A DNA stretch of 64,000 bases from Alphaproteobacteria bacterium (GTDB lineage: Bacteria; Pseudomonadota; Alphaproteobacteria; MPNO01; UBA830), in the NCBI GenBank assembly GCA_964291215.2, contig OZ219791.1:480001-544000 (forward strand), read 5' to 3'. Both the position numbers and the translations under genes were made by a program. Under the pieces are notes generated by a model. That model ran no database searches. It was not told the DNA's origin and saw only the letters and a list, made by a program, of their open reading frames with translations. Below, in pieces: positions 7,528 to 51,772 of this stretch (position 1 is the first letter of the stretch; the number at the start of each line of letters is the position of its first letter).

Positions 7528-7599
7528 AAACCAAAATACGCCCACCAGGACGCTCAAATCATTGTAGGAAAGGCATTGGACAACATGCCACACTTGCCG

Positions 7600-7616
7600 C
7601 AGCTCGCCGATCAGGG
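7600..7616 (-). repeat. isolated IS1380-type terminal inverted repeat
   Basis: CAGCTCGCCGATCAGGG is the exact reverse complement of 8866-8882. Confidence 0.75.
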
Positions 7617-7627
7617 GTAAACACCGG

Positions 7628-7656
7628 TTGACGTTTCAAAGGCGAGTTCCTATTAT
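7628..7656 (+). promoter_or_regulatory. sigma70 promoter for the DUF3800 gene
   Basis: TTGACG-17 bp-TATTAT. Confidence 0.7.
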
Positions 7657-7675
7657 GCTGGCAGAAACTCTAGAT

Positions 7676-7728
7676 TGCTGACCCCATCGCGGGCAGCGGA
7701 CCCTATGGCCACCGCGAGGTGGCCATAG
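7676..7728 (+). ncRNA. candidate structured leader/ncRNA (two hairpins) upstream of DUF3800
   Basis: TGCTG-A-CCC...GGG-CAGCG stem, then perfect 11-bp stem CTATGGCCACC-GCGA-GGTGGCCATAG with GNRA loop. Confidence 0.45.
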
Positions 7729-7745
7729 CCATGTTTGGGGGGAAG

Positions 7746-8585
7746 ATGAAGGTTTGCTTCGTCGACGAGGCGGGCGACCTCGGAGCGTTGTCCGATCCGC
7801 CACGGCAGAACGATCAGCCCGTCCTGGTGATCGGCGGCCTTATTCTCAATGCCGGCGATCTCCACGATTTCACGGTGCGCTTCCTCGATCTGAAAGCCCA
7901 GTACTTCCCGAGGTTGCCTTATCCGTCCCCGAGACCTCTGGATCGAATCCTGCCCGAGATCAAGGGACAGGACCTTCGGCGGAACGTAACGCGCGGCAAC
8001 GCCCGGCAGCATAACCATACGATAGGTTTTCTGGACCGGATTCTGGGCCTGCTGAAAGCCCATAGCGTCCAACTGGTGGCACGGATCTGGGTGAAAAGCC
8101 TTGGTGGGCAGTTCGATGCCACATCGGTGTACACATCCTCAATGCAGAGTATCTGCTCGCACTTCAATCACTATCTGACCCGGACCGGCGATCCCGGTGT
8201 GTGCATCGCCGACAGCCGGAACAATTTCAAGAATGTCAGTGTGTCCCATTCGATTTTCACGCAGAAATTCGGGCGGGTGACCCGGAAATACGAAGGAATG
8301 GCAGAACTCCCCACGTTCGGGCACAGCGACAATCATGCCGGTCTTCAGGTGTGCGATTTGGTTTGTTCCGGCCTTCTCTTCCCAATCGCTTGCTTTGCAT
8401 ATTGCTCGGGCCATGTGAACAACGTCCATGTGCAGCCGCGAGTGGCGGAACTCAGGCTGCGTTACGGGCAACAGCTGAAGGCGCTGCAGTACCGGTACTA
8501 CGACGAAACGCTCAGCCGCTACCGAGGCGGCTTCACCGTGTCGGATGCTATCGGTCACCAGAGCGGGTCGCGGATGTTTATCTGA
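7746..8585 (+). CDS. DUF3800 domain protein (RNase H-like fold)
   Basis: N-terminal FVDEAG, central CIADSR, C-terminal LQVCDLV pattern typical of DUF3800. Confidence 0.8.
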   Translation: MKVCFVDEAGDLGALSDPPRQNDQPVLVIGGLILNAGDLHDFTVRFLDLKAQYFPRLPYPSPRPLDRILPEIKGQDLRRNVTRGNARQHNHTIGFLDRILGLLKAHSVQLVARIWVKSLGGQFDATSVYTSSMQSICSHFNHYLTRTGDPGVCIADSRNNFKNVSVSHSIFTQKFGRVTRKYEGMAELPTFGHSDNHAGLQVCDLVCSGLLFPIACFAYCSGHVNNVHVQPRVAELRLRYGQQLKALQYRYYDETLSRYRGGFTVSDAIGHQSGSRMFI

Positions 8586-8588
8586 CAG

Positions 8589-8865
8589 ATGCGGTCCTTC
8601 ATACAGGATCGCGCGGAGTAGCCGCCGAGAGCTCTATGAGCAAGGGCGGTCGCCAAAATTGGCGCAAGGGACACATCGGGAAGCTCTCGCGCATCCTGAC
8701 CGCTCTGGATCGGAGCTCCGGCCCGGAAGGTATGGATATTCCCGGCTTTCGCCTCCACCCTCTCAGGGGACGTATGCAGGGACATTATGCAGTATCCGTT
8801 TCCGCCAACTGGCGAGTGACATTCCGGTTCGAGGATGGCCACGCAGCGGATGTCGATTATATGGA
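8589..8865 (+). pseudogene. higB: HigB/RelE-family toxin, frameshifted and cut by IS1380
   Basis: PGFRLHPLRG...YAVSVSANWRVTFRFEDGHAADVDYMD; N terminus in another frame; last codons replaced by the IS end; no higA nearby. Confidence 0.75.
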
Positions 8866-10365
8866 CCCTGATCGGCGAGCTGATTTTTTTGCGGCTGGGT
8901 TTTGGCTTTCTTGGAACCGTTGTTGAGTGTTGCCGCGTCGTTCAGGCGGGCGTCGTCGGGTTTGGTATGGATTGGGGGCGGTCTGGCCGCAGTTTTTGCG
9001 ACGATCCGGTCTTGATCGGGACTGCCCGGGCGCGCGTTTTCCTCCGGTGGGGTGCCGGTCGGGTTTTTCGGTGGGGCTCCTGGGCGCGGGGATCAGCCGG
9101 GCGCGGGCGGCAGCATGGCGAGGTTCATCCTCCGGCACGCTGCCATCAGATGGGGGCCGGCGTTGCCGAGCACGAGGGTGATCCGGCGGCCATGGTGGAC
9201 GACACGGGCGACGAGGTGGATTCACATCGCGCGCAGACGCTTCATCCGCGTCCATTGCCATTCCTGCCCGCAGGCGGTGCGGCACAGCAGCGCCAGCACG
9301 TTCATCGCCAGGGCCGCGAGCCACAGCCAGGCGGCATTCGCGCCGAACCGCCCCGACGGCATCATCCCGCCCGCCAGGTCGGACTTGAGCACCGCATGCA
9401 CCTCCTCGCCGTGACCGCAGCGGGCATGCGCCGCCGCGACCACCTCGAAGCTGTCCATGGTCTCCAGCCCGTTCGCCTTCTGCGCCCGGATGGCATCGGG
9501 GGCGGGGAAGTTGGTGACATAGGCCCCGATCCTGCAGGCGGGCCTGCCTTGGGCCGCAGGCAACTCCCCTTCGTCCAGGCCCAGCTCGCCCGGAAGAGCG
9601 CGCCGGGTCACGACATGGCGAACCACGTGATGCGGCTTCATCGCCAGGGTGCTTGCCGGGACATAGGGCAGTTCGGCGCATTCCAGCGGCGCCCTGTCCG
9701 GCGCCGCGCGCCTGTTGCGTCCGCTCACCGGGCGCCAGGCGTCTTCCCCGAGCCGCGCCACCTCCGCCATCAGCGGCTCCGAGCGCACCGCGCCGCAGAC
9801 CAACCCCACCGTGCCGAACCGACGCGTCTCCTCCCTGCGGAACGCCGGGTCGTTGCAGGCGCGGATCACCTCCTCCTGATAAGCGGCCGCGTCGCTGCGC
9901 AGCACTACACGACCTATGTCGTCGGGAAGCTGCAACAGCGCCTCTTCAAGCCCGCGCCGGTTGTCGAGCGTCGCCGGCACATTGCCATCGCGCATCTCAA
10001 GCCACGGGACCATGCCGAGCTCCGGGCAGAACGCAATCAGCGGCTGGTAGCCCCGCTCGCCCCGAACTACCCTCTCCGCAGCCCGGTAGGTGTACAGGCA
10101 CTCACGCTTGCCGGACGCGATGATCGTCGCGTCGAGGTCGATCGTCACCGAGCCCGCCTCCCGCACCCCTTCCGCCACAAGGCGCCGGTTCACCTCGCGA
10201 AGCAGGCCGTCCCTCTCACCCGGCACCGGGATGAACGCCGTCCCCTTCTCGCGTTCGGCGTCATGAACCCCCGCAACGTGAAAACGGTCCAGCCAGTCAC
10301 GGATCGAGCGCGCCGACGGCAAGCACCGTGTCTTTCCATCGCCCCTTGATCCGACCTTGCCCATA
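8866..10365 (-). mobile_element. IS1380-family element, 5'-truncated and frameshifted transposase
   Basis: TIDLDAT, GYQPL, MRDGNVP, LRSDAAAY, EEVHAVLKSDL, PSGRFGANAAW; TIR CCCTGATCGGCGAGCTG at 8866. Confidence 0.85.
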
Positions 10366-38840: not shown

Positions 38841-40379
38841 TCACGCTGCCTGCTCAAGTGACCACGCAACCCGGTCCGCCACAAACTGCGCGAACGGCCC
38901 GATATCTTGATCGATGCTGGCGCTTTCAAGCGCCGCCAGGTAGACATCACGATCCTCGACCCGGATGACGGTCCATGGATAGCCGCCGGATGCCAGCATC
39001 GCGTTCATGACAAAGCGTGCCATACGCCCGTTGCCGTCCGGGTAAGGATGGATATAACCGAACAGCCAGTGCCCGAGCACGGCGCGAACGGAAGGCTCGG
39101 TTTCAGTTTCCAGCAGATCGAACAAGGCTGGCATGGCATCGCGCACCGCCTCCCAGCGCGGCGGCACATGCCGCGATCCCCGCAGAAACACGGCATCGTT
39201 GCGGTAACCCGCCAGAGCGGAAGCCGCGATCAGGCCGGTGGCGACGCAAGGCTGAAACAGCTCGCGATACCAGTCGCGGTGGGCCTTGCGGACTAGAGCA
39301 CCGGCTTCACCGTCGCCAATGATCTCACTGACCGCCGCCCGCACAAGCTGGAACGCCTGCCAATAACCTCGCGCGGCCAGCGCATCGCGGCTCTGCCGGT
39401 CGGCGTCATGATTGTCCGGGTCCCAGCTGCCCGCGCGTACCTGGTCGATCAGCTCCGGCGTGACGCGGTAGCCCTCGATCGACAGCGAGTGATAGGCATC
39501 GTTCTGATAGATATCGTCAACGAAGGACAAATAGGCTTTGGTATCTTTGGGCAGGCCGGGCGCTTCGGGAAATGCTGCGATCACAGGCTCCCGCATCGTC
39601 TCCCACAACGATTGCAGGCGGCCGACAATCGGCGCCTGCGCCCGGCTCAGCGCACCAAAAGCGTGTTCCGGCTCAAACGGATCGGCTTCGCGGACATCGT
39701 AACCGGCGCGTTTCATGACGCTCAGAATCTCATCGGCCACGTCACCCCTGCCGATCCGGCGGAAGGCGCCGGCCAGCCGGCCGGCGATCACCGAATGACC
39801 GCCGTCAAGCAGCCGCCCGAGCACGTCAGCCGCATCGCGGATGCCCGAGAGTACGACCTGCGCTTCGACCGGGTGCCGGACAAAAAACGCCTCCGGCACG
39901 CGCACCAATGCCGCCTCGGGCACAAACAGCCGCAGCCCGTCCCGGTCCATCAGGTCGGCGTCCGGCGGCGTGTCTTTTTGTCTGAGGTCGTATAAAGACG
40001 TGCCGAACAACAGTTCGACGGTGTTGTTGGCGCCCTTGGGCGTATAGATAATGACCTGCTGCGGAATGACGGTGTTTTCCGCGAGGAGCAGCAATGACTG
40101 TTCCGGGGACAGGTGCCAGTCCGGCCCGAACCGGGCCGTACAATAGGCCGCGCAGAACTCCCAGAAAGAAGCGAACCAAGGCGTCGTATCGCCCGGATCG
40201 GCATCAGGGCTGCAAGAGATCAGCCAGCCCTTCATCACCTCGCGCAAGAAACCGTTCCTGACCAGCCGCTGGCGGTGAAAACGCGTCAGCTCGCCGGAGC
40301 GGAAAACCCGCCGCCCTCGGCCCCGGAGCTTCTGGAGCTGCGCCAGCGACGCAGCGAGTTTCTCATTCGGTGTGACCAT
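38841..40379 (-). CDS. Fic-domain protein (512 aa)
   Basis: HPYPDGNGRMAR Fic motif; SLSIEG. Confidence 0.93.
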   Translation of the reverse strand: MVTPNEKLAASLAQLQKLRGRGRRVFRSGELTRFHRQRLVRNGFLREVMKGWLISCSPDADPGDTTPWFASFWEFCAAYCTARFGPDWHLSPEQSLLLLAENTVIPQQVIIYTPKGANNTVELLFGTSLYDLRQKDTPPDADLMDRDGLRLFVPEAALVRVPEAFFVRHPVEAQVVLSGIRDAADVLGRLLDGGHSVIAGRLAGAFRRIGRGDVADEILSVMKRAGYDVREADPFEPEHAFGALSRAQAPIVGRLQSLWETMREPVIAAFPEAPGLPKDTKAYLSFVDDIYQNDAYHSLSIEGYRVTPELIDQVRAGSWDPDNHDADRQSRDALAARGYWQAFQLVRAAVSEIIGDGEAGALVRKAHRDWYRELFQPCVATGLIAASALAGYRNDAVFLRGSRHVPPRWEAVRDAMPALFDLLETETEPSVRAVLGHWLFGYIHPYPDGNGRMARFVMNAMLASGGYPWTVIRVEDRDVYLAALESASIDQDIGPFAQFVADRVAWSLEQAA

Positions 40380-40559: not shown

Positions 40560-40599
40560 TTGACAATGTCAGATTTTTTGCATATAATACCTGACATTG
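40560..40599 (+). promoter_or_regulatory. perfect sigma70 promoter overlapped by an inverted-repeat operator
   Basis: TTGACA (40560-65)-17 bp-TATAAT (40583-88); CAATGTCAG (40564-72) / CTGACATTG (40591-99) inverted repeat. Confidence 0.85.
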
Positions 40600-40608
40600 G
40601 AGGTTGCC

Positions 40609-41175
40609 ATGAGCGATGGTCCCCACAGAAGCCTGAAAATGCCGCGCGGCTGGAAAAAGCTCGCAGAGCGCGCCGACAACAAGGCCTACGCGCCCGAAGA
40701 GGTGCGCGACGCCCTGCCGGAAGCGCTTGAGCAGGATTGGCGTGCAGAAGTGCCGGACAGCGTCTGCAGACGCGTCCGTGACATACTTGGCGATAATCAG
40801 AGTTCGCTGTTTGGCGATCAGCGGGCCGAGCGGCTCGAAGCCCTGCGCGGAGAGACGGCCGGATACGCGCTTGGCAATGCCTTGCTCGATTATGCGATTG
40901 AGGTGGCTGCGCAGGGATGCGACGGCGATGAGGCGTTGAGAGAAGCGGCCGGCAAGGCGTTGACGGATCGCGCCGCGCGCGGCGCCCGCCAGGTCGAGGA
41001 GCACTATTGCCGCGAGTCCACGCTCCACCGTGCCGCTCACGTGCGTGAAAGTATCGAAACCGGGGTAACGCAATCGGACATCGACGGCATTGCCGGGCGG
41101 CTCGTCGGCACCGACAAGAGTGAAAAACCGCGACCGGCCAAGCAGACGGGCCTCGATGACGGGGTGCAGCTATGA
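40609..41175 (+). CDS. hypothetical helical protein, coupled to the QueC-like gene (QatB-like position)
   Basis: GGAGG RBS; MSDGPHRSL N terminus; ATGA overlap with the next gene. Confidence 0.85.
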   Translation: MSDGPHRSLKMPRGWKKLAERADNKAYAPEEVRDALPEALEQDWRAEVPDSVCRRVRDILGDNQSSLFGDQRAERLEALRGETAGYALGNALLDYAIEVAAQGCDGDEALREAAGKALTDRAARGARQVEEHYCRESTLHRAAHVRESIETGVTQSDIDGIAGRLVGTDKSEKPRPAKQTGLDDGVQL

Positions 41176-42566
41176 AGGGCACTGCCGCCGGGAACGCCGC
41201 CGAACTGCCAATACACCGTGTAGACGTTGTCGAGCCGGGGGTGCCGGCACGGCGGCATCGTATCAGGTGCGAGATCGGGGAGACCCTGAGATTCGATACG
41301 GCTGGGCTGGAAGCCTATTGCCTTGCGAATTGGGATGCGCGGGTCTTTGACGCGTTCGTACTCGCGGCCGCCATACAGTTCTGCGACCACACGAAAGCCA
41401 GGCCTTCCGCCCGCTGGGGCCGCGAGATCATCCTGCGCATACCCGTCCATGAACCTACGCATTGGCGTTCGGCGGCGGTTTCAGAGGCATTGCACGGGGC
41501 GTTGGGATTTCTAACCGGCGACCGGTGGCACATCGAATTTGTCGCGCGAAAGAAGTCGGAGTCCCCGCCCCGGCAGCAAAACCTGAGTCTGCCGGACGGC
41601 GAACGCGTCGTTATCCCGTTTCGCGACGGCCTGGACTCGCGGGCGGTCGCCGGTCTGGCGGAACGTGAACATGGCCATAAGCTGATTCGAGTTCGGCTAG
41701 GGTCGCGGTCGCTCAACGGCCATCGCGCCAAAGGCGAGCGCGTGCCCTTTGCTTCGGTGCCGTACCATGTGCGTTTTGGTCGTCGGGGGTCGGTGGAAAC
41801 GAGCGCGCATTCGCGCGGGTTCAAGTTTGCGCTGTTGAGCGGGATCGCGGCCTATCTGTCGCAGGCCCGGCAAGTGATCGTGCCCGAAAGCGGCCAGGGA
41901 GCCCTCGGCCCAGTCCTCGTTCCGGTCGGCCAGGCCTATGAGGACTACCGGAATCATCCGCTCTTCACGGATCGTATGGAAGTCTTTTTATCCGCACTAT
42001 TTGGCCACGAAATTCGGTACACCCATCCGCGTCTCTGGCACACCAAGGCCGAAACGGTGGCAGCGTTCACTGCCGCGTGCCCGGACGGGACGAACTGGGC
42101 GCAGACGCGCTCGTGCTGGCAGGGACAGCGGCAGGCATCCGTATCCGGAAAGTGGCGCCAATGCGGCATCTGTGCCGCCTGCTTGCTCAGACGTATGAGC
42201 GTGCACGCCATGGGCGGCACTGAAGACAGAGCGACGTATATCTGGGAGGACTTGAGTGCCGCCCGCTTCGATGACGGCGCCACCACTGGTTTCAGGAAAA
42301 CCAGGCCGCAGGGCGCCCTCTACGAGTATGCGATTGCGGGGGCGCTTCACCTCGATCATCTGGCGGGGCTGCAGCATTCGCCGGCAAACCAGGTTCTGCT
42401 GGACCGGCAGGTCTTTCAGCTAAGCCGGTCGCTCGGCGTTGCGGAACAGGAAACGCGGCAAAAACTGGAGCGACTGCTCAGCCAGCACGCAAAAGAATGG
42501 AAAGACTTTGTCGGGTCCCTGGGTCCACGCTCATTCGTGGCGCAGTGGGCTTTGGGGGGACCATGA
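41172..42566 (+). CDS. QueC/QatC-like PP-loop protein
   Basis: PP-loop variant PFRDGLDS, HP, TKAE, Zn motif TRSC...CGICAACLLRR; QatC-like N-terminal segment WGREIILRIPV; 464 aa. Confidence 0.85.
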   Translation: MKGTAAGNAAELPIHRVDVVEPGVPARRHRIRCEIGETLRFDTAGLEAYCLANWDARVFDAFVLAAAIQFCDHTKARPSARWGREIILRIPVHEPTHWRSAAVSEALHGALGFLTGDRWHIEFVARKKSESPPRQQNLSLPDGERVVIPFRDGLDSRAVAGLAEREHGHKLIRVRLGSRSLNGHRAKGERVPFASVPYHVRFGRRGSVETSAHSRGFKFALLSGIAAYLSQARQVIVPESGQGALGPVLVPVGQAYEDYRNHPLFTDRMEVFLSALFGHEIRYTHPRLWHTKAETVAAFTAACPDGTNWAQTRSCWQGQRQASVSGKWRQCGICAACLLRRMSVHAMGGTEDRATYIWEDLSAARFDDGATTGFRKTRPQGALYEYAIAGALHLDHLAGLQHSPANQVLLDRQVFQLSRSLGVAEQETRQKLERLLSQHAKEWKDFVGSLGPRSFVAQWALGGP

Positions 42567-42567
42567 T

Positions 42568-43746
42568 ATGGCGCTGGAGGAACTTAACTCTCAGGATGTC
42601 GGTGAACGTTTGCGGATTGCACGCGAAGAGGCCGGCATTACGCAGGCCGACGCTGCGGCGGGCATCGAAGTCGCGCGAACGACGCTTGTCGCCATAGAAA
42701 AAGGCCAGCGGCGCATCCGGCCGGACGAACTTCAGCGTCTCGCCCGCCTTTACGATACGTCTGTCAATGCGCTGTTGCGGCGCGAGTCCGTCTATGTCGA
42801 TCTCGTACCGCGCTTTAGGAAAGTTAGCACGAGCACTGACGAGGCAGCGGATGCAGCGGCGCGCCTGCTTGCCGATCTGGTCCGGGCCGAAGTGGAGCTT
42901 GAAAATATCCTGGGGATCAAGCGGACGCGGAACTATCCGCCCGAGCGCCCGATCATGCCCGGCGATGTGCGAGCGCAGGCGGAAAACGATGCGACGGAGC
43001 TTCGTCAGTGGCTTGGCCTTGGGCAAGCCCCGGTACGTGAGCTCATCAGCCTTCTGGAACTCGATCTTGGCGTTCGCGTCTATGTCCGGCGTGTTGATCC
43101 GCGCATTTCCGGGCTGTTCGCCTATGACGAGGAGCTCGGCGCCTGCATGCTACTCAACGCGAATCACCCGCGGGAGCGCCGGATGCAATCCGGAGGCCAC
43201 GAACTCGGCCACTTTGTTTCAACGCGGCGGAAGGCTGAAATCCTGCATGTCGACGAGGAAGAAAACTCACGGGAAGAACGCTACGCAAATGCGTTTGGCC
43301 GCGCTTTCCTGACGCCGGCGCGCACTGTCATGCAAAGATTCCGCGAAATCACGGCGGGGGCGTCACGCCTGACGCGCCGGCATGTCATCCTCCTGGCTCA
43401 TGCTTTCGGGGTCTCGCGGGAAGCGATGGTGCGGCGGCTGGAAGAGCTAGCCCTGGCCAAGCCAGGCACGTGGGACTGGTTCGTGGCCAATGGCGGCATC
43501 ACCGATGCGCAGGCCCGGCAGGTTCTGGGCGATCTGACCCCGCTCGATATGGGCAAACAAGATGCGGACCGGCCTACGACGTTGCGGCTGAATCTGCTGG
43601 CCGCGGAGGCGTGGCGCCAGGACCTCCTCAGCGAAGGTCAGCTCACCCGCTTATTGCACCTTGACCGCCTCGGCTTGCGCGAAATTCTGGACAATGTGGA
43701 GATCGAAGGGAGCGAGGCGGATGGAATGCCAAAGCTGCCTGAATGA
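42568..43746 (+). CDS. XRE-HTH + ImmA/IrrE (M78) metallopeptidase fusion
   Basis: GERLRIARE...TQADAA...RTTLVAIEKG; HELGH; ERYANAF. Confidence 0.92.
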   Translation: MALEELNSQDVGERLRIAREEAGITQADAAAGIEVARTTLVAIEKGQRRIRPDELQRLARLYDTSVNALLRRESVYVDLVPRFRKVSTSTDEAADAAARLLADLVRAEVELENILGIKRTRNYPPERPIMPGDVRAQAENDATELRQWLGLGQAPVRELISLLELDLGVRVYVRRVDPRISGLFAYDEELGACMLLNANHPRERRMQSGGHELGHFVSTRRKAEILHVDEEENSREERYANAFGRAFLTPARTVMQRFREITAGASRLTRRHVILLAHAFGVSREAMVRRLEELALAKPGTWDWFVANGGITDAQARQVLGDLTPLDMGKQDADRPTTLRLNLLAAEAWRQDLLSEGQLTRLLHLDRLGLREILDNVEIEGSEADGMPKLPE

Positions 43747-44332
43747 TCCCACGACCCTCGTTGTCGCTGATGCCAGTGTCGCAATCAATTTGAATGCGAC
43801 CGGCTTCGCCGCTTCCATATTGGAGGCGTTGCCGAACAGGTTTGCCGTAGTCGAGGAGGTCGCCCTTGAGCTTGAGAACGGGCGGCGGCGCGGGCGCAAC
43901 GACGCCGATGCCCTTAACACTCTTGTCGTTGCCGGCCGCGTTGACATCGTGCGGCTGGGAAACCCCGCCATAGGGTATTTCACGTCGCTTGTTTCAGGGT
44001 CGGCGGCAGAGACACTCGATGACGGTGAGGCCGCGACGATCGCCTACGCCCTGGAACACGGCGCCACAGCCCTGATCGATGAACGCAAAGCCAAGAGGAT
44101 TTGTGCGGAGCGGTACGGCGCTCTGGCCACCGGCTGCACCATCGACATCCTGGCCCATAACGGGGTCGAAGCGGCCCTCGGGCACAGCAGACTTGCCGAT
44201 GGGGTATTCAACGCCCTGTATCACGGCCGCATGCGCGTGCTGGCGCAACACATGAATTGGGTCGTCAATCTGATTGGTTCTGAGCGTGCGGCGCAATGCG
44301 TTTCTTTGCCAAGATCAGTTCGACCGCGTTGA
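43721..44332 (+). CDS. PIN-domain protein
   Basis: VVADASVAINL, LDDGEAATIAYA, IDERKA; overlaps the peptidase 3' end. Confidence 0.8.
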   Translation: MECQSCLNDPTTLVVADASVAINLNATGFAASILEALPNRFAVVEEVALELENGRRRGRNDADALNTLVVAGRVDIVRLGNPAIGYFTSLVSGSAAETLDDGEAATIAYALEHGATALIDERKAKRICAERYGALATGCTIDILAHNGVEAALGHSRLADGVFNALYHGRMRVLAQHMNWVVNLIGSERAAQCVSLPRSVRPR

Positions 44333-45872: not shown

Positions 45873-48800
45873 GTATCCGTTCGGGTTCCGGGGGATCGTA
45901 TGCCGCCACGGATTTTCTGACTGGTAACTACTTCGCGCATGCGCTACGGTCTCTCGCATGGCGGTTTTCGGCGCGGATTTCTGCACCGACCTGACGCCGG
46001 CCGAGGGGGGCGACACCTTGTGGTCGCCTCCCATGGTGATGCCGGCGTGCGAGCCGCTCGACTGGGCGTCTGTGCTTGAAGAGGCAGAGGCGCGGATCGA
46101 GGAGGAACGGGGTCGCGCACGCGTGGCGGAGTTGCGCCGCGAGGAACTGCGCTGGTCGGAGAGGGACGCCTGTACGCGCGTGCGTTCGCTGGAGAGGCAG
46201 CTTGAGACTTGCCGGTTCAAGCTCAAGTTGGCCGTAACCAAGACCGCGTCGCGGGCCATGAAGGCGTTGGAGCGCAGGGTCGAGTATCAGGACGACGAGA
46301 TCGCCGGTCTTTACCTCTCGTTGCGCCGGTCTCACGAGCACCGGGAGCGGGTCGAGGCGCGCCACCGGGACGAGATCAACTGGTTGAAGCAGGACATCGA
46401 CCGGGAGCGCTCGCGGCTCGCGAAGGTGCACCGCGAGGGCGAGCGTGTGGCCGAATCTCTGCGCGGGCGGTTCGACCGGCATCTCGCGGCGGCCAGGCGG
46501 CTGGTGGAGGCCCGGGAGGGCACGATCGCGTGGCTGCGCGCGCAACGACCGGCTGCGGTCGTGCAGGCCACGGAGCTGATCGCGTCGCTGCGGGAGAAGA
46601 ATGCCGGGCTGCGCGCCGAGGTGCGGGATCTGAAGGGCGAGAACGCCGCGCGGGTCGAGAAGCTGGAAGGCGACCTCGACAAGCTGCGCTCGACCCGCAG
46701 CGTCCTGTCGAAGGCGCTCTATGGCAGCAGGAGCGAGCGGCAGAAGAAGCCGGGCGCGAGCGCGGCCAGCAGCGCGGCACCGTCGGGCACGGCCGCACCC
46801 GGCGCCCCGGGCTCAGGAAGAAGAAGGAGACGCGCGACCCGCCGGAAGATGCGCGGATCTGCCCGCGTTGCGGCAAGCCCCATGTCGCCAACGGCGAGCG
46901 GCGCACCACCCTCTTCGAGATCGATGTCGAAGCCTGCGAGCGCACCATCGTCCGGTCGCGCTGGCGCCGGGCTTGCGACTGCGCCTCCGCGCCGCGGGAG
47001 GTGGCCGCGCCGCCGGCGGTGCGACTGTTCGAGACCACGCCTTGCGGGATCAGCGTCTGAACGTGCATGCTCTACGAACGGTTCGTCTGCTGCCGGCCGC
47101 TGCATCGGGTCGCGGCCTGGCTGGCCGACATGGGGCTGACGATCTCGCCGGGCACCCTGCAGCATCAAGCGCTTCGTGCCGCTGTTCGAGCCGCTGGCCG
47201 AGGCGATCCTTGCGCACCAGAACACCGCGGCCCTGCGCCATGCCGACGAAACATCCTGGCGCGTTCGGGCCTGGCGCGAGAAAGGCCGGTCGAGCCGCGC
47301 CTGGCTGTGGACCTCGGTGAGCCCGGACGCGGTCTATTACCACATCGATCCCTCGCGCAGCGCCGAGGTCGCGATGAAGCTGTTCGGTTCGACACAGGGC
47401 ATCGTGGTTCTGGTCTGCGACCGGTTCAGCGCCTACAGAAAGCTGGCCCGCAAACTCGCCGGCAAGGTGATCCTGCAATGGTGCTGGGCGCACCAAAGGC
47501 GCTCGTTCATCGACGGCGCGGCCGGGCGGGTGCGGCTCAGGCGCTGGTGCCAGAGATGGATCGAGCGGATCGCGGAGATCTACCGGCTCAACGAGGCGCG
47601 GCTGGAGCATTACGACCCCGCTCACCCTCTCGAACGCCGGCGTTCGACGTCGCGCACGCCAGGCTGAAGAAGGCGGTCGACGAGCTGTTCGCGGCCGCCG
47701 AAGCGGAACTGGCCGGGCTGACGGACAGGGCGCGCAGGGCCAGGCCGCTGCGCTCGCTCCTCAAGCACCGCGAGGGGCTGTGCGTCTTCGTCGACAAGCC
47801 GTTCGTGCCCATGGACAACAACCGCGGCGAACTCTCCCTGAGCTTCGCGGTCATCGGGCGACGGCTCTCGTTCGGCTCCGACAGCGAGAAAGGCGCCGGG
47901 TTCACGGCGACGATGTACTCGGTGGCCGGCACGCTGGCGATCAACGGCATCGATGTCCGGCGCTGGCTCGGTGAATGGCTGACCGCGTGCGCGGAGAACG
48001 GCGGCGAGCCGCCGGAAGACCTCTCGCCCTGGCTGCCGTGGTCAATGAGCGAGGCGCGCCGGCGCGAACTCGCGGCGGCGGGATGACCGGCGCGGTCGAG
48101 TGCCGCTATTACGGGCGCGACTTCACCGAAGATGAAATGGCGCTGCTGCGCGCCCTGATCGCCGATCCCGCCCCGCTCTCCCGCCGCGCCCTGTCGATCG
48201 AGTTCTGCCGGCGCATCGGCTGGCTCAAGCCCGACGGCGGACTGAAGGACATGATGGCCCGTGTCGCCATGCACAAGGACGGGCTCATCGAGCTGCCGCC
48301 GCCGAGGGGGCGGAAGCACCGGCCCAGGCCGGTCCAGTTCGGACCCGACACCGAACCGCCGCTGTTCCCGGCGCCCACGACCCTCGACGAGGTCCGCCCG
48401 CTCGACTTCCGCACCGTCGTGCACAGCACCCGCGAAGGCAGGCTCTGGAACGAGTTCATCGCCCGCTACCACTATCTCGGACACAAGACACTGGTCGGCG
48501 CCCAGATGCGCTATGCCGTCCACGACCGCAACGGCTGGCCCGTCGCCATGCTCGGTTTCTCCACCGCCGCATGGAAGCTCGCTCCGCGCGACCGCTTCAT
48601 CGGATGGACGCCCGAGCTGCGCGAAAAGAACCTTCCTCTTGTCGTCGACAACCCGCGCTTCCTGATCCTGCCCTGGATCGAGATCCCCAAACTCGGCTCG
48701 CACATCCTCGCCATCGTGCGCCGCCGCCTGCCCATCGACTGGACCGGGCGCTACAACATCACGCCGGTGCTGATCGAGACCTTCGTCGAAACGCCCCGCT

Positions 48801-49034
48801 ACACCGGTGCCGTATACCGCGCATCGGGCTGGACCCGCGTCGGGACCACCCAGGGCCGGGGACGCTACGACAGGCACAACAAACGAGACCAGCCGAAAAA
48901 GGACATCTGGCTCCGCACACTGCGAAAAGACTGGCAACGCACCCTCAATCGGTAGAAGTACAACCGTCGGGCCGGTGTGAAAATGCCGACAAGCGGATAA
49001 CCCAATCCTCATCCCCCGGAACCCGAACGGACAC
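45873..49034 (+). mobile_element. IS66-family element with frameshifted transposase and DUF4338 passenger
   Basis: 24-bp TIRs GTATCCGTTCGGGTTCCGGGGGAT / ATCCCCCGGAACCCGAACGGACAC (one mismatch); HADETSW, CDRFSAY, CWAH, MDNN. Confidence 0.88.
48083..48955 (+). CDS. DUF4338 (Druantia DruA-like) protein inside IS66
   Basis: YHYLG, RDRFIGW, NPRFLILPW, ETFVE...Y.ASGW..VG.TQGRGR. Confidence 0.85.
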   Translation: MTGAVECRYYGRDFTEDEMALLRALIADPAPLSRRALSIEFCRRIGWLKPDGGLKDMMARVAMHKDGLIELPPPRGRKHRPRPVQFGPDTEPPLFPAPTTLDEVRPLDFRTVVHSTREGRLWNEFIARYHYLGHKTLVGAQMRYAVHDRNGWPVAMLGFSTAAWKLAPRDRFIGWTPELREKNLPLVVDNPRFLILPWIEIPKLGSHILAIVRRRLPIDWTGRYNITPVLIETFVETPRYTGAVYRASGWTRVGTTQGRGRYDRHNKRDQPKKDIWLRTLRKDWQRTLNR

Positions 49035-49790: not shown

Positions 49791-50006
49791 CGGCACTTCC
49801 TCGTATCCGTGCCAGCCGCCTCCCCCTTGGCCGAAGAACCCATCGCACCGACATGCCGAAGCCGAATGGCCTTGCGCTGACACTGTATCTATATATGTGC
49901 GTTTTCCAATCTGTCAATGGAAAGTTTTGACATTATATGTTTGATAACGGAAACTCGCTCCGATGCCGCTGCAGCGGCGGCATTTCAGCAGGGAGGAAAC
50001 AACACC

Positions 50007-51245
50007 ATGCACGCGAAGGATCTGGGATCACGATTGCGCAGGGCGCGCGAATCCCGCGGCCTCAGCCAGCAGGCTGCTGCCCAGGCGTTGGACCTTCCCC
50101 GCACCGCCGTCACGCAGCTTGAGGCCGGTAGTCGATCCGTATCCACCCTCGAACTGATCCGGCTTTCCGAACTCTACCTGCACCCCGTCTTCGATCTCTT
50201 GCATGACGGCCCGAGGGACGAGGATCAGGATGTCCTCGTCGCTCTGCACCGCATTGCCCCGGGGCTGGAGGAAGATCCGGACACGCGCGAGCAGATCACC
50301 CGTTGTGTTCACCTCTGCCGGGAAGGCGTTGCGCTCGTACGTCTGCTGGGCACCGAATACCGATCCGGCCCTCCCAGCTACGACATGCCGATCCCCCACT
50401 CACCCGGAGAGGCTGTCGCACAGGGAGAGGAGACGGCCGAGCAGGAGCGCCGCAGGCTTGGAATCGCCAATGCGCCGATTGCTGACGTATCCGAACTCAT
50501 TGCTTCCCAAGGCATCTGGGCATCCGGCGTCACGCTTCCCGACGGTATGTCAGGCCTCTTCCTGCGGCATCCGAGCATCGGGCTGGCCATTCTCGTGAAT
50601 TCGTCCCATCCGAAAGGACGGAAGCGCTTTTCCTACGCGCACGAATACGCGCACGCCCTCCTCGACCGGAATGACTACGTGACGATTTCCAGCACCGACA
50701 ATTCCTCCGAAATGGTCGAAAAGCGCGCGAACGCATTTGCCGCAGCCTTCCTCATGCCGAGGGCCGGAATCCGTACTTCCCTGCAGGCCCTCGACAAGGG
50801 CCTGCCGAGCCGCCAGGACCACACCATCTTCGACGCCGCGAGCGGGGGCCACATCGAGGCGGCCCAGCGCCCGCCGGCTCGCTCCCAGCGCATCACCTAC
50901 AAGGACAACGCCATGCTCGCGCACCATTTCGGCGTGAGCTACCCGGCGGCCGCCTATCGGCTCAAGAGCCTTCGATACATTTCCGCGCGCGAGTGCAGCG
51001 ACCTGCTCGACCGGGGAAGCGTCGGACGAGAGTATCTTGTTGCCCTCAGCAAGTTCGATGACGTCGGCAAGCGCGAACGGCGACAATACTGGGATCGGGA
51101 GCTTCGCAGCGAAATCGTGCATCTCGCCATCGAGGCCTATCGCCTGGAGGAAATCTCCCGCGGTCGGATCCTGGAACTGAGCAAGACCCTTCGGATCCAA
51201 GGAGACACCCTGCTCAACTTGGCCGAAGCGGCCCGCAACGGATGA
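50007..51245 (+). CDS. XRE-HTH + ImmA/IrrE metallopeptidase fusion (second copy)
   Basis: GGAGG RBS; GSRLRRARESRGLSQ; RFSYAHEYAH; EKRANAFAAAFLMP. Confidence 0.92.
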   Translation: MHAKDLGSRLRRARESRGLSQQAAAQALDLPRTAVTQLEAGSRSVSTLELIRLSELYLHPVFDLLHDGPRDEDQDVLVALHRIAPGLEEDPDTREQITRCVHLCREGVALVRLLGTEYRSGPPSYDMPIPHSPGEAVAQGEETAEQERRRLGIANAPIADVSELIASQGIWASGVTLPDGMSGLFLRHPSIGLAILVNSSHPKGRKRFSYAHEYAHALLDRNDYVTISSTDNSSEMVEKRANAFAAAFLMPRAGIRTSLQALDKGLPSRQDHTIFDAASGGHIEAAQRPPARSQRITYKDNAMLAHHFGVSYPAAAYRLKSLRYISARECSDLLDRGSVGREYLVALSKFDDVGKRERRQYWDRELRSEIVHLAIEAYRLEEISRGRILELSKTLRIQGDTLLNLAEAARNG

Positions 51246-51772
51246 CATTCGTAGCGGGAGAAACCAAGCCGGCGATCATCGTCACCGACACCTCGGTGCT
51301 CATCAATTTTCTACGCATTGACCGGACAGACCTGATCGCCGGCCACTCCCACGATTTCCTCGCCACCGACCATGTCACGGCGGAAATCAGCGACCGCTAT
51401 CCCGACCAACAGCAGAGGTTCGCCGAAGCTCTCGATGCCGGCACCATTTCGGAGACGCGCGTTACCATGCCGGAAGAGCTTCAACTCTTCGAATCCTTGT
51501 TCACCACCGGGCGTCTGGGAGCGGGAGAATGTTCCGCAATCGCCCTCGCCGTTCACCGCGGCTACATCCTTGCCATAGATGATCGCCTCGCTATCCGCCA
51601 TGCGCGCGGGGCTGATGCCCGTCTTCGCATCCTCGCAACACAGGACCTGATGGTCTCAATGATCCGCGAAGGCCTGCTCGAAGTGGAGGAGGCCGACCGC
51701 ATCAAGGGGGACTGGGCCACGCGCCACCGATTTCGCCTCAAGCTGGACAGCTTCCGGGATCTGATCCGCTAA
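51242..51772 (+). CDS. PIN-domain protein (DUF3368-like)
   Basis: VTDTSVLINF, LGAGECSAIALA, IDDRLA; ATGA overlap with the peptidase. Confidence 0.82.
   Translation: MTFVAGETKPAIIVTDTSVLINFLRIDRTDLIAGHSHDFLATDHVTAEISDRYPDQQQRFAEALDAGTISETRVTMPEELQLFESLFTTGRLGAGECSAIALAVHRGYILAIDDRLAIRHARGADARLRILATQDLMVSMIREGLLEVEEADRIKGDWATRHRFRLKLDSFRDLIR

Follow-up and report, generated by a model that had tools for sequence, protein, structure and literature searches.

A conserved, mobile four-gene operon with a QatC-like enzyme, a predicted acceptor protein and an Xre-M78/PIN pair of predicted toxin-antitoxin type

Enzymes of the QueC family act in two anti-phage systems, type IV CBASS and QatABCD. The N-terminal ligation chemistry of Cap9 in type IV CBASS, as described in the accessible part of its report (10.1101/2025.04.06.647259), serves as the model for the enzyme considered here. 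QatC is characterised by the motifs DxxxxRxxxxWxR, DxWxxxF, RxRxxxF, ExxxG, HP, TK and CGxCxxCxxRR (PMC13329287), and the MGTS tail of its partner QatB is essential (PMC13279940). The 2026 structure papers on QatBC leave two questions, the identity of the group that QatC attaches and the way in which its partner, once modified, blocks phage. Among toxin-antitoxin systems, the available portions of PMC5499597 and PMC2701414 present HTH-DUF955 together with COG2405 as a predicted three-domain module, and that of PMC5499597 reports UPF0175 beside COG2405 alone. We analysed a window of 64,000 nucleotides of an alphaproteobacterial contig (OZ219791.1), in which the original prediction had placed a distinct QueC-based architecture of four genes, here called A to D (Table 1). 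Of that proposal the four-gene linkage, the QatC-like nature of gene B and the non-glycine start of gene A stand, whereas RDGLDS as a PP-loop variant of the family and a replacement of QatA and QatD by genes C and D do not. In the literature searched, mostly outside subscription journals, we found no description of the four-gene set; the terms M78 and DUF3368 are absent from one supplement of PMC13329287, the neighbourhood table of which may be in another file.

Table 1. Features of the operon and private changes of the copy in the window (positions in the window)
Feature	Position	Strand	Remark
Gene A	40609-41175	+	188 aa, open frame
Gene B	41172-42566	+	464 aa, open frame
Gene C	42568-43746	+	392 aa, open frame
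Gene D	43721-44332	+	203 aa, open frame
Sigma-70-type promoter TTGACA-17-TATAAT	40560-40588	+	consensus 12/12
Palindrome TGACAATGTCA	40561-40571	.	covers the -35 box; predicted operator for the Xre HTH of gene C
Second half-site TGACA	40592-40596	+	near the predicted transcription start
R148S, gene A	41050-41052		private
S151R (CGC), PP-loop of gene B	41622-41624	+	private; Ser in 120/120 homologues
R213H (CAT), RxRxxxF motif of gene B	41808-41810	+	private; Arg in 120/120 homologues

Among the genomes, 28 of 28 loci have all four genes in order, as do five of five distant plasmid loci that were opened, with gene B identity down to about 39%. Metagenome loci with enough flank contain gene A in 70/70, gene C in 58/58 and gene D in 55/55 cases, so that the co-occurrence on which the original prediction hinged was found in every locus with enough flank. 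The gene A family comprises 895 representatives at 50% identity, and the operon occurs patchily, in 2 of 40 relatives. Gene A is found in 16 plasmid records; the operon resides on conjugative plasmids and also adjoins integrases, resolvases and toxin-antitoxin genes, and searches of viral contigs and phage records yielded no relatives. The four genes make up an operon that is both conserved and mobile. Within 1.5 kb of the loci, 23 of 72 single-occurrence flank ORFs match PADLOC at E<=1e-12 (a raw count), the matches being to Hachiman, RM I/IIG/III, AbiE, AbiJ, PD-T7-1, Bil, HerA and HEC-05. The island of broken neighbours described for the window consists indeed mostly of IS pieces and fragments, but a Fic gene, a second HTH-M78 and PIN-like pair (49917-51772) and HsdM are open. 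The divergent Fic gene was rejected as a fifth operon member because the nearest upstream gene varies among 108 loci (Fic/DUF4172 cluster in 14, HipA in 12, AbiE in 5).

The genes are tightly joined, by an ATGA overlap (A/B), a 1-bp gap (B/C) and a 26-bp overlap (C/D); the description of four intact coupled ORFs holds for frames and junctions but not for the active site of gene B, which is altered in this copy. The perfect promoter was borne out, and a scan for sites scoring >=9/12 found 2, the shuffle mean being 1.2. Across 21 of 21 aligned upstream regions the -35 TGACA is identical, and the -10 region is AT-rich yet variable. At the -35 box, 83 of 95 loci carry a perfect copy of the palindrome TGACAwTGTCA and 94 of 95 a copy with at most one mismatch, and none of 261 control regions, taken from in front of genes B, C and D, contains it; 94 of 95 loci also have a second half-site, GACA, 28-42 bp past the start of the palindrome.

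The gene B product carries a QueC-family PP-loop, TKAE and a Zn site (C315/C331/C334/C337), the TKAE and C..CxxCxxC motifs being present as first noticed, and a family motif Y256-x-D258-Y-R260-x-H-P. It matches the PADLOC QatC profile (E 8e-30) and scores 103.6 bits against NF041925 (QatC), short of the curated cut-off of 280, and 16 bits against TIGR00364 (QueC), for which the cut-off is 150. Structure comparisons were made with a model built on the homologue L001. VIA gave a Z score of 28.2 against QatC 9y01_B (rmsd 3.6, 390 aligned residues), 11.2 against QueC and 9.2 against Cap9, and Foldseek gave E 9e-16 and TM 0.63/0.67 against QatC; the fold matches full-length QatC with both extensions included, in agreement with the QatC-like N-terminal extension proposed for the protein. 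In the phylogenetic tree gene B forms its own branch beside QatC (support 99, midpoint root), apart from housekeeping QueC, and this branch together with the fold scores rules out the housekeeping identity that would have counted against the original prediction. Gene B keeps the QatC motifs listed above. At the position of the QatC T-x-T (T278/T280), D258 and R260 align, each in 120/120 homologues. They may fill the T278/T280 slots, or else Y256 and D258 may mimic the YPDC of QueC with a two-residue insertion. The most distant locus, L136, reads A-P-D-L-R-T-H-P and retains only D and R of the Y/D/R motif, and L142 reads YPDYR, a QueC-like YxDxR motif.

As for the remaining Qat components, profiles for QatA (NF041923) and QatB (NF041924) found no match in the genome, nor did tblastn with two partial QatA queries in loci L001-L108; TatD gives a single sub-cut-off match on the other contig, and in homologous loci gene C follows gene B directly. 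QatA and QatD are thus missing, as had been stated. Neither CD-NTase nor Cap10/TGT was detected among the four proteins with Pfam, PADLOC and NCBIfam profiles. The claim that no queD, folE or tgt is nearby also proved correct: the only tgt of the genome and its folE are on the same contig at distances of >1.8 Mb, and neither QueD/PTPS nor canonical QueC was found in the 99%-complete genome. A separate QueC over cut-off is present in 16 of 29 operon hosts. QueD is absent in 10 of the 29, which argues against host CDG as substrate; since 4 of 10 canonical Qat hosts, examined as a control, also lack it, its absence is no family-specific trait.

Gene A encodes an all-helical protein with the N-terminus M-S-D-G-P, a conserved RQxEEHYxR motif and a C-terminal tail [LIV]D[DE]G[VP]. 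Its most conserved part is the first five residues, M[ST]DGP being found in 114 of 120 matches and in 124 of 150 representatives (50% clusters), most of the others having mis-called starts. Residue 2 is Ser in 120, Thr in 4 and Gly in none of these 124 full-start representatives, so the MSDGPHRSL start, pointed out as differing from MG, reflects a conserved non-glycine N-terminus. A Ser/Thr start is not universal, because L136 begins (M)RDGIW. No family over cut-off was found for gene A in Pfam, PADLOC or NCBIfam, and no clear match among PDB sequences (best E 0.19), in the ESM Atlas or by Foldseek; a wide VIA search reached a best Z of only 5.9, QatB being absent among the Foldseek and wide VIA matches listed. 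Such blank searches do not demonstrate a new fold. Directed comparison with the globular domain of QatB by VIA gave a weak colinear alignment (140-145 residues, rmsd ~6) at Z 4.1-4.4, where Z ~4 is the noise level, and hhalign gave a weak E of 0.019 in a profile comparison and 0.59 against a two-sequence QatB alignment. Judged from its sequence, gene A is a predicted acceptor in the role of QatB, to which homology is not established; its fixed first five residues mirror the essential MGTS tail (PMC13279940).

The gene C product combines an Xre HTH, an M78 (ImmA/IrrE) metallopeptidase with HELGH and a weak C-terminal UPF0175-like domain, the HExxH being present in 83/83 intact loci; with a threshold of E<=0.05, 36 of 43 members match UPF0175, the best at 8e-6. 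It matches RmrA (best E 3e-26), CapP and CapH profiles. Gene D encodes a PIN protein of the DUF3368/COG2405 type (ESM Atlas score 0.98 to DUF3368 clusters; PADLOC PDC-S70, E 1e-10) without a match to the PADLOC RmrT models, and D17, E50, D101, E103, D120, E121 and D142 are invariant in 81/81 members. Gene C is a predicted autorepressor and antitoxin and gene D a predicted RNase toxin. With Xre HTH and HExxH M78 fused in one gene and a COG2405 PIN gene following it directly, the pair is by its domains of the Xre-M78/DUF3368-PIN toxin-antitoxin type, already known as a prediction. Genes C and D are not functional stand-ins for QatA and QatD, as had been suggested, but a separately known predicted module.

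The RDGLDS loop is present in the window copy; the family PP-loop, however, is S[DEN]G[LM]DS, and RDGLDS as a family variant is ruled out by the invariant Ser at 151, leaving a private S151R. At this site the contigs of sequencing runs X1 and X2 have the same letter as the window and those of X3 and X4 a Ser codon; X3 has Cys at the R213 site and a 1-bp insertion at 42257. A sequencing error behind S151R was rejected, as the X1 and X2 contigs agree (X1 may be the source sample). No RNA data set was among the listed carriers of the sequence. Judging from S151R and R213H, the gene B enzyme of this genome is probably inactive. Conserved sites are hit by three private changes in genes A and B of this copy and by none in genes C and D, and the latter two look intact by sequence.

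The reading towards which we lean, if only slightly, is that of a QatBC-like N-terminal ligation module with M78/Xre control and a PIN effector, likely anti-phage. The gene C product would bind the observed palindrome over the -35 box and keep the operon low, and infection or ssDNA would activate its M78 protease, leading to cleavage of the repressor by analogy with CapP/CapH and PprI/DdrO. Met removal would expose Ser2 of the gene A product; gene B would adenylate a carboxylic acid and join it to the free N-terminal Ser/Thr amine of A, as Cap9 does and as has been proposed for QatC, and the conserved N-terminus and catalytic motifs are consistent with such a reaction. The modified A-B complex and/or the freed PIN RNase D would then arrest the cell, the link between the two modules being the weakest step. 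In a more specific version, which we regard as speculative and rather improbable, B captures an infection-specific acid through its Y-x-D-Y-R pocket, possibly the 7-carboxy-7-deazaguanine of DNA-modifying phages (phage-made, because many hosts cannot make it), and ligates it to the N-terminal Ser/Thr, whose hydroxyl would be required, for example in a further ATP-driven step, a cyclodehydration that yields an oxazoline and resembles the second half-reaction of QueC; modified A would activate the M78 protease or free the PIN RNase, resulting in abortive infection. If true, this would be a third QueC-based immune chemistry, in which a sensed phage metabolite leads to abortive infection.

Three other explanations have to be weighed against the ligation module. 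Genes C and D alone could form a DNA-damage-responsive toxin-antitoxin or addiction module, with A and B a separate QatBC-like defence pair that has the promoter control by C in common with it and no biochemical link to PIN. HTH-M78 and PIN pairs do occur by themselves, as in the second pair of this island, QatBC suffices against some phages (PMC13279940), CBASS operons are regulated by M78/HTH pairs according to the available part of PMC10904395, and the private changes of the window copy fall in A and B only. Yet every locus with a gene B of the operon branch and enough flank also has C and D, and one would expect a cassette with a solely regulatory role to have lost or exchanged its PIN gene here and there, so that we hold this explanation to be unlikely, if a serious contender. 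It is doubtful that the operon serves plasmid/ICE maintenance or a stress response, B modifying a small molecule or nucleic acid rather than A: its residence on conjugative plasmids beside integrases, resolvases and toxin-antitoxin genes would fit, and small molecules are common targets of the QueC family (PMC13329287), but a protein acceptor is indicated by A, whose extreme N-terminus is invariant, and by B, whose fold is that of full QatC with both extensions, and the flanks are by raw count rich in phage-defence genes.

Finally, the operon could be a divergent qatBC operon, with a genuine orthologue of QatB in A, the same chemistry as QatABCD, and a toxin-antitoxin pair that has taken the place of QatA and QatD. 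The branching of B beside QatC (support 99, midpoint root), the weak colinear alignments of A with QatB and the dispensability of QatA and QatD against some phages (PMC13279940) speak for this; with B at 104 bits for a cut-off of 280, Ser/Thr in place of Gly2 in 124/124 full starts, no long Pro-rich QatB tail on A, and Y-x-D-Y-R in place of the invariant QatC T-x-T, we consider it very unlikely.

The operon family represents a widespread natural variant with a changed acceptor residue and substrate pocket, which offers a direct comparison to Qat for finding a first substrate, and the recognisable nuclease and the protease-repressor fixed in the operon are ready candidates for its output and its trigger. 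That QueD is often missing from hosts, canonical Qat hosts included, questions host CDG as donor. Should the ligation module be real, QueC-type protein conjugation would extend beyond N-terminal glycine.

Compared with known systems, gene B shares with QatABCD (9y01/9y02, 9vlk, 9zee) the QatC fold over its full length, the N- and C-terminal extensions included, the PP-loop, the Zn site and most QatC motifs, and the operon shares an adjacent helical partner gene with an invariant extreme N-terminus and a defence-island setting. It differs in lacking QatA and QatD, in a gene A product of 188 aa with M[ST]DGP for MGTS and without the 30-90-aa flexible Pro-rich tail of QatB, in the substrate slot of gene B (Y-x-D-Y-R-x-H-P for S-T-R-T-T-H-P) and its separate branch, and in the linked HTH-M78 and PIN pair and predicted operator palindrome. 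Type IV CBASS (Cap9-CdnD, 9nto) likewise has a QueC-family enzyme with an SxGxDS loop, but Cap9 is ~185 aa where gene B has 464, the acceptor here is not Gly, and there is no CD-NTase, Cap10/TGT or effector of that kind. Canonical QueC (~220 aa) has the PP-loop core, Zn site and YxDxR-like motif in common with gene B, which is twice as long and on a separate branch. To RosmerTA RmrA and to CapH/CapP the likeness lies in partial profile matches of gene C that reflect shared domains; here HTH and protease are fused, and gene D has no RmrT match. With the Xre-COG2856 (DUF955/M78) and COG2405/DUF3368 PIN toxin-antitoxin module, genes C and D share domains, order, overlap and the UPF0175-like C-terminus, but here the module is consistently preceded by a QatC-like pair that goes unmentioned in the available portions of PMC5499597 and PMC2701414.

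The layout of the operon, put forward in the original prediction as four coupled ORFs (an ATGA overlap, a 1-bp gap and a 26-bp overlap) behind a promoter, was borne out. The same genes, A (small helical protein), B (QatC-like enzyme), C (HTH-M78 protein) and D (PIN protein), occur in this order at all 28 genome loci retrieved with B, whose named hosts are Alpha- and Gammaproteobacteria, Acidobacteria, Binatia, Entotheonella and Chloroflexota. A metagenome scan confirmed 483 stretches; among the best 80, which were retained, A is present in 70/70 loci with sufficient upstream DNA, and C and D in 58/58 and 55/55 loci with sufficient flank. As genome and metagenome loci were gathered with close patterns and include near-copies, these counts are not independent. 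Five of 25 plasmid records in which at least 80% of B is covered were therefore opened, four of them from a distant tier (38-40% identity). All five carry the four genes in the same order, the first matching the A profile; the set is thus co-conserved, as the prediction required. Gene A comprises 895 representatives at 50% identity and is patchy among kin (2/40 relatives of the window genome). In 76 fully covered loci a length filter flagged broken copies of B (5), A (2), C (2) and D (3), some of which may be assembly or start-call errors.

Features of the operon and its surroundings (window coordinates)
Feature	Position	Strand	Remark
Fic gene	38841-40379		512 aa, divergent, upstream of operon
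Sigma-70 promoter	40560-40588		12/12 match, 5' of operon
Gene A	40609-41175		ORF
Gene A C-terminal tail	41142-41175		disordered
Gene B	41172-42566		ORF
Gene C	42568-43746		ORF
Gene D	43721-44332		ORF
DruA-matching ORF	48083-48955		Pfam E 9e-36; immediately 3' of IS66 fragment
Second HTH-M78/PIN-like pair	49917-51772	+	29% identity to C, then 176-aa ORF without Pfam match

Gene B matches QatC in PADLOC (E 8e-30) and scores far below the cut-off of the NCBIfam QatC model. The predicted structure of its homologue at locus L001 (pLDDT 87.8) matches QatC from end to end (Z 28.2, rmsd 3.6, 390 residues); QueC and Cap9 score Z 11.2 and 9.2, respectively. A quick tree of 34 rows separates the gene B family, 9 QatC and 6 QueC sequences each by a branch (99, 95, 99), with the gene B family adjoining QatC under a midpoint root, in agreement with the proposal that B is QatC-like rather than a housekeeping QueC. 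The QatC motifs listed in PMC13329287 are retained. Where QatC has an invariant T-x-T, at the Tyr/Asp positions that read CDG in QueC and Cap9 (PMC13279940), gene B has Y256-x-D258-Y-R260-x-H-P, with Y256, D258 and R260 present in 120/120 homologues. This motif may represent either a QueC-like Y-x-D clamp, to which the YPDYR of the L142 homologue is relevant, or a new D-x-R pair. At L136 (2408-6141), the most divergent member, which is followed by a Shedu-family gene, B reads A-P-D-L-R-T-H-P in place of Y-E-D-Y-R-N-H-P.

The prediction had also called RDGLDS a variant of the QueC PP-loop; as a trait of the gene B family this did not hold. Residues 151 and 213 are Ser and Arg in 120/120 homologues; the window copy has Arg (S151R) and His, and two private changes of this kind occur in only 4/121 rows. 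Contigs of runs X1 and X2 match the window. In X3, whose organism label is the same, residue 151 is Ser, residue 213 is Cys and 1 bp is inserted at 42257, an independent lesion in this gene. Gene A of the window carries R148S (Arg in 92/95), and no private change at conserved sites was found in C and D. Double mutants indicate that the corresponding PP-loop serines of QatC (S156A/S161A; PMC13279940) and Cap9 (S18A/S23A; 10.1101/2025.04.06.647259) are needed for defence. RDGLDS is thus best read as decay of the window's gene B, not new chemistry, and experiments are best done with an intact homologue.

Gene A is predicted to be all-helical (pLDDT 86) and had no family match in family-profile, PDB-sequence and ESM Atlas searches. 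It starts with M[ST]DGP in 114/120 hits and 124/150 representatives; in eight of the remaining 26 an over-long start precedes the motif, 16 start from the second Met or close to it, and two show slight differences. Gly2 occurs in none (0 of the 124 full starts), upholding the claim that A starts MSDGP, not MG. The initiator Met is removed alike before Ser, Thr, Gly and Ala, yet A is restricted to Ser/Thr, which suggests that the hydroxyl of residue 2 matters. At L136, gene A starts (M)RDGIW. In QatB, the MGTS start is indispensable and inserts into the QatC site (PMC13279940; PMC13376578; PMC13639016); a low-level NDG peptide is reported in PMC13639016. QatB chains appear at ranks 24 and 37 of A's structure-search list (Z 4.4 and 4.1), with the longest aligned spans in it, and the profile comparison gives E 0.019, together a weak hint of homology. 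Across all homologues the disordered tail of A closes with a conserved [LIV]D[DE]G[VP], similar to the SDGP at the protein's N terminus; this might act as a further ligand in the groove of B, or as a cleavage site for M78.

QueD was not found in the window genome and 10 of the 29 other hosts searched, including L001 and L006, each assembled as a single chromosome and with intact operon frames; host-made CDG is therefore not generally available. Four of ten near-complete genomes with canonical Qat (G009, G188, G349, G404, G407, G426, G428, G455, G506, G247) likewise lacked any match to QueD/PTPS, a result relevant to the question of host CDG as the QatC substrate.

Gene C combines an Xre HTH with an M78 domain, whose HExxH is kept in 83/83 intact copies, and ends in a tail weakly resembling UPF0175; gene D is a DUF3368 PIN protein with invariant acidic residues. 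A palindrome, TGACAwTGTCA, lies over the -35 box in 94/95 loci, with a second half-site downstream; it occurs in 0/261 control regions and twice in the window genome. Gene C is its obvious predicted binder. Known precedents for ssDNA-activated M78 cleavage of a repressor are CapP and PprI (PMC10904395). In a distant rhizobial subgroup (L135, L137, L138, L119) two operator-like copies precede A, one reading TTGAC[AT]TTGTCAG and the other, further upstream, [AT]TGTCAG; neighbours at L135 and L137 are annotated as dGTPase or HD-domain.

The surrounding island, judged from 25 scanned ORFs with rough ORF calling, contains IS pieces, ICE remnants (DUF736, DUF2274), a short patatin, the second HTH-M78/PIN-like pair, HsdM with HsdS fragments and nucleotidyltransferase pairs. 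The second pair has neither A nor B beside it, and the patatin, divergent from it, matches CBASS phospholipase effector models. The DruA-matching ORF might be cargo of an IS element and not a Druantia gene. The Fic gene recurs at L011 and L030; across L001-L108 the divergent neighbour 5' of A is often a toxin module (Fic/DUF4172 at 14 loci, HipA at 12, AbiEi/ii at 5). Among flank ORFs that occur once and lie within 1.5 kb, 23 of 72 match PADLOC models at E<=1e-12 (a raw count, some matches partial), as do 11 of 17 further, hand-picked ones. At L071 the operon is followed directly, on the opposite strand, by a CapP-like peptidase, two unknown ORFs and a prokaryotic E2 family E gene (7550-10292).

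No description of the four-gene set was found in the literature searched, which left most subscription papers outside its reach. Compared with QatABCD, the operon falls short of the QatC cut-off and lacks T-x-T and Gly2; QatA and QatD were searched for in it and, as predicted, not found, nor was QatB. It is therefore not a QatABCD member. C and D are the same pair as a published, predicted toxin-antitoxin type, Xre-M78 with DUF3368 PIN (PMC5499597, PMC2701414). We infer that the operon functions much as QatBC would if an M78/Xre switch controlled it and a PIN protein were its effector: B would bind A and modify it by ligation, C would regulate and the whole would act in defence.
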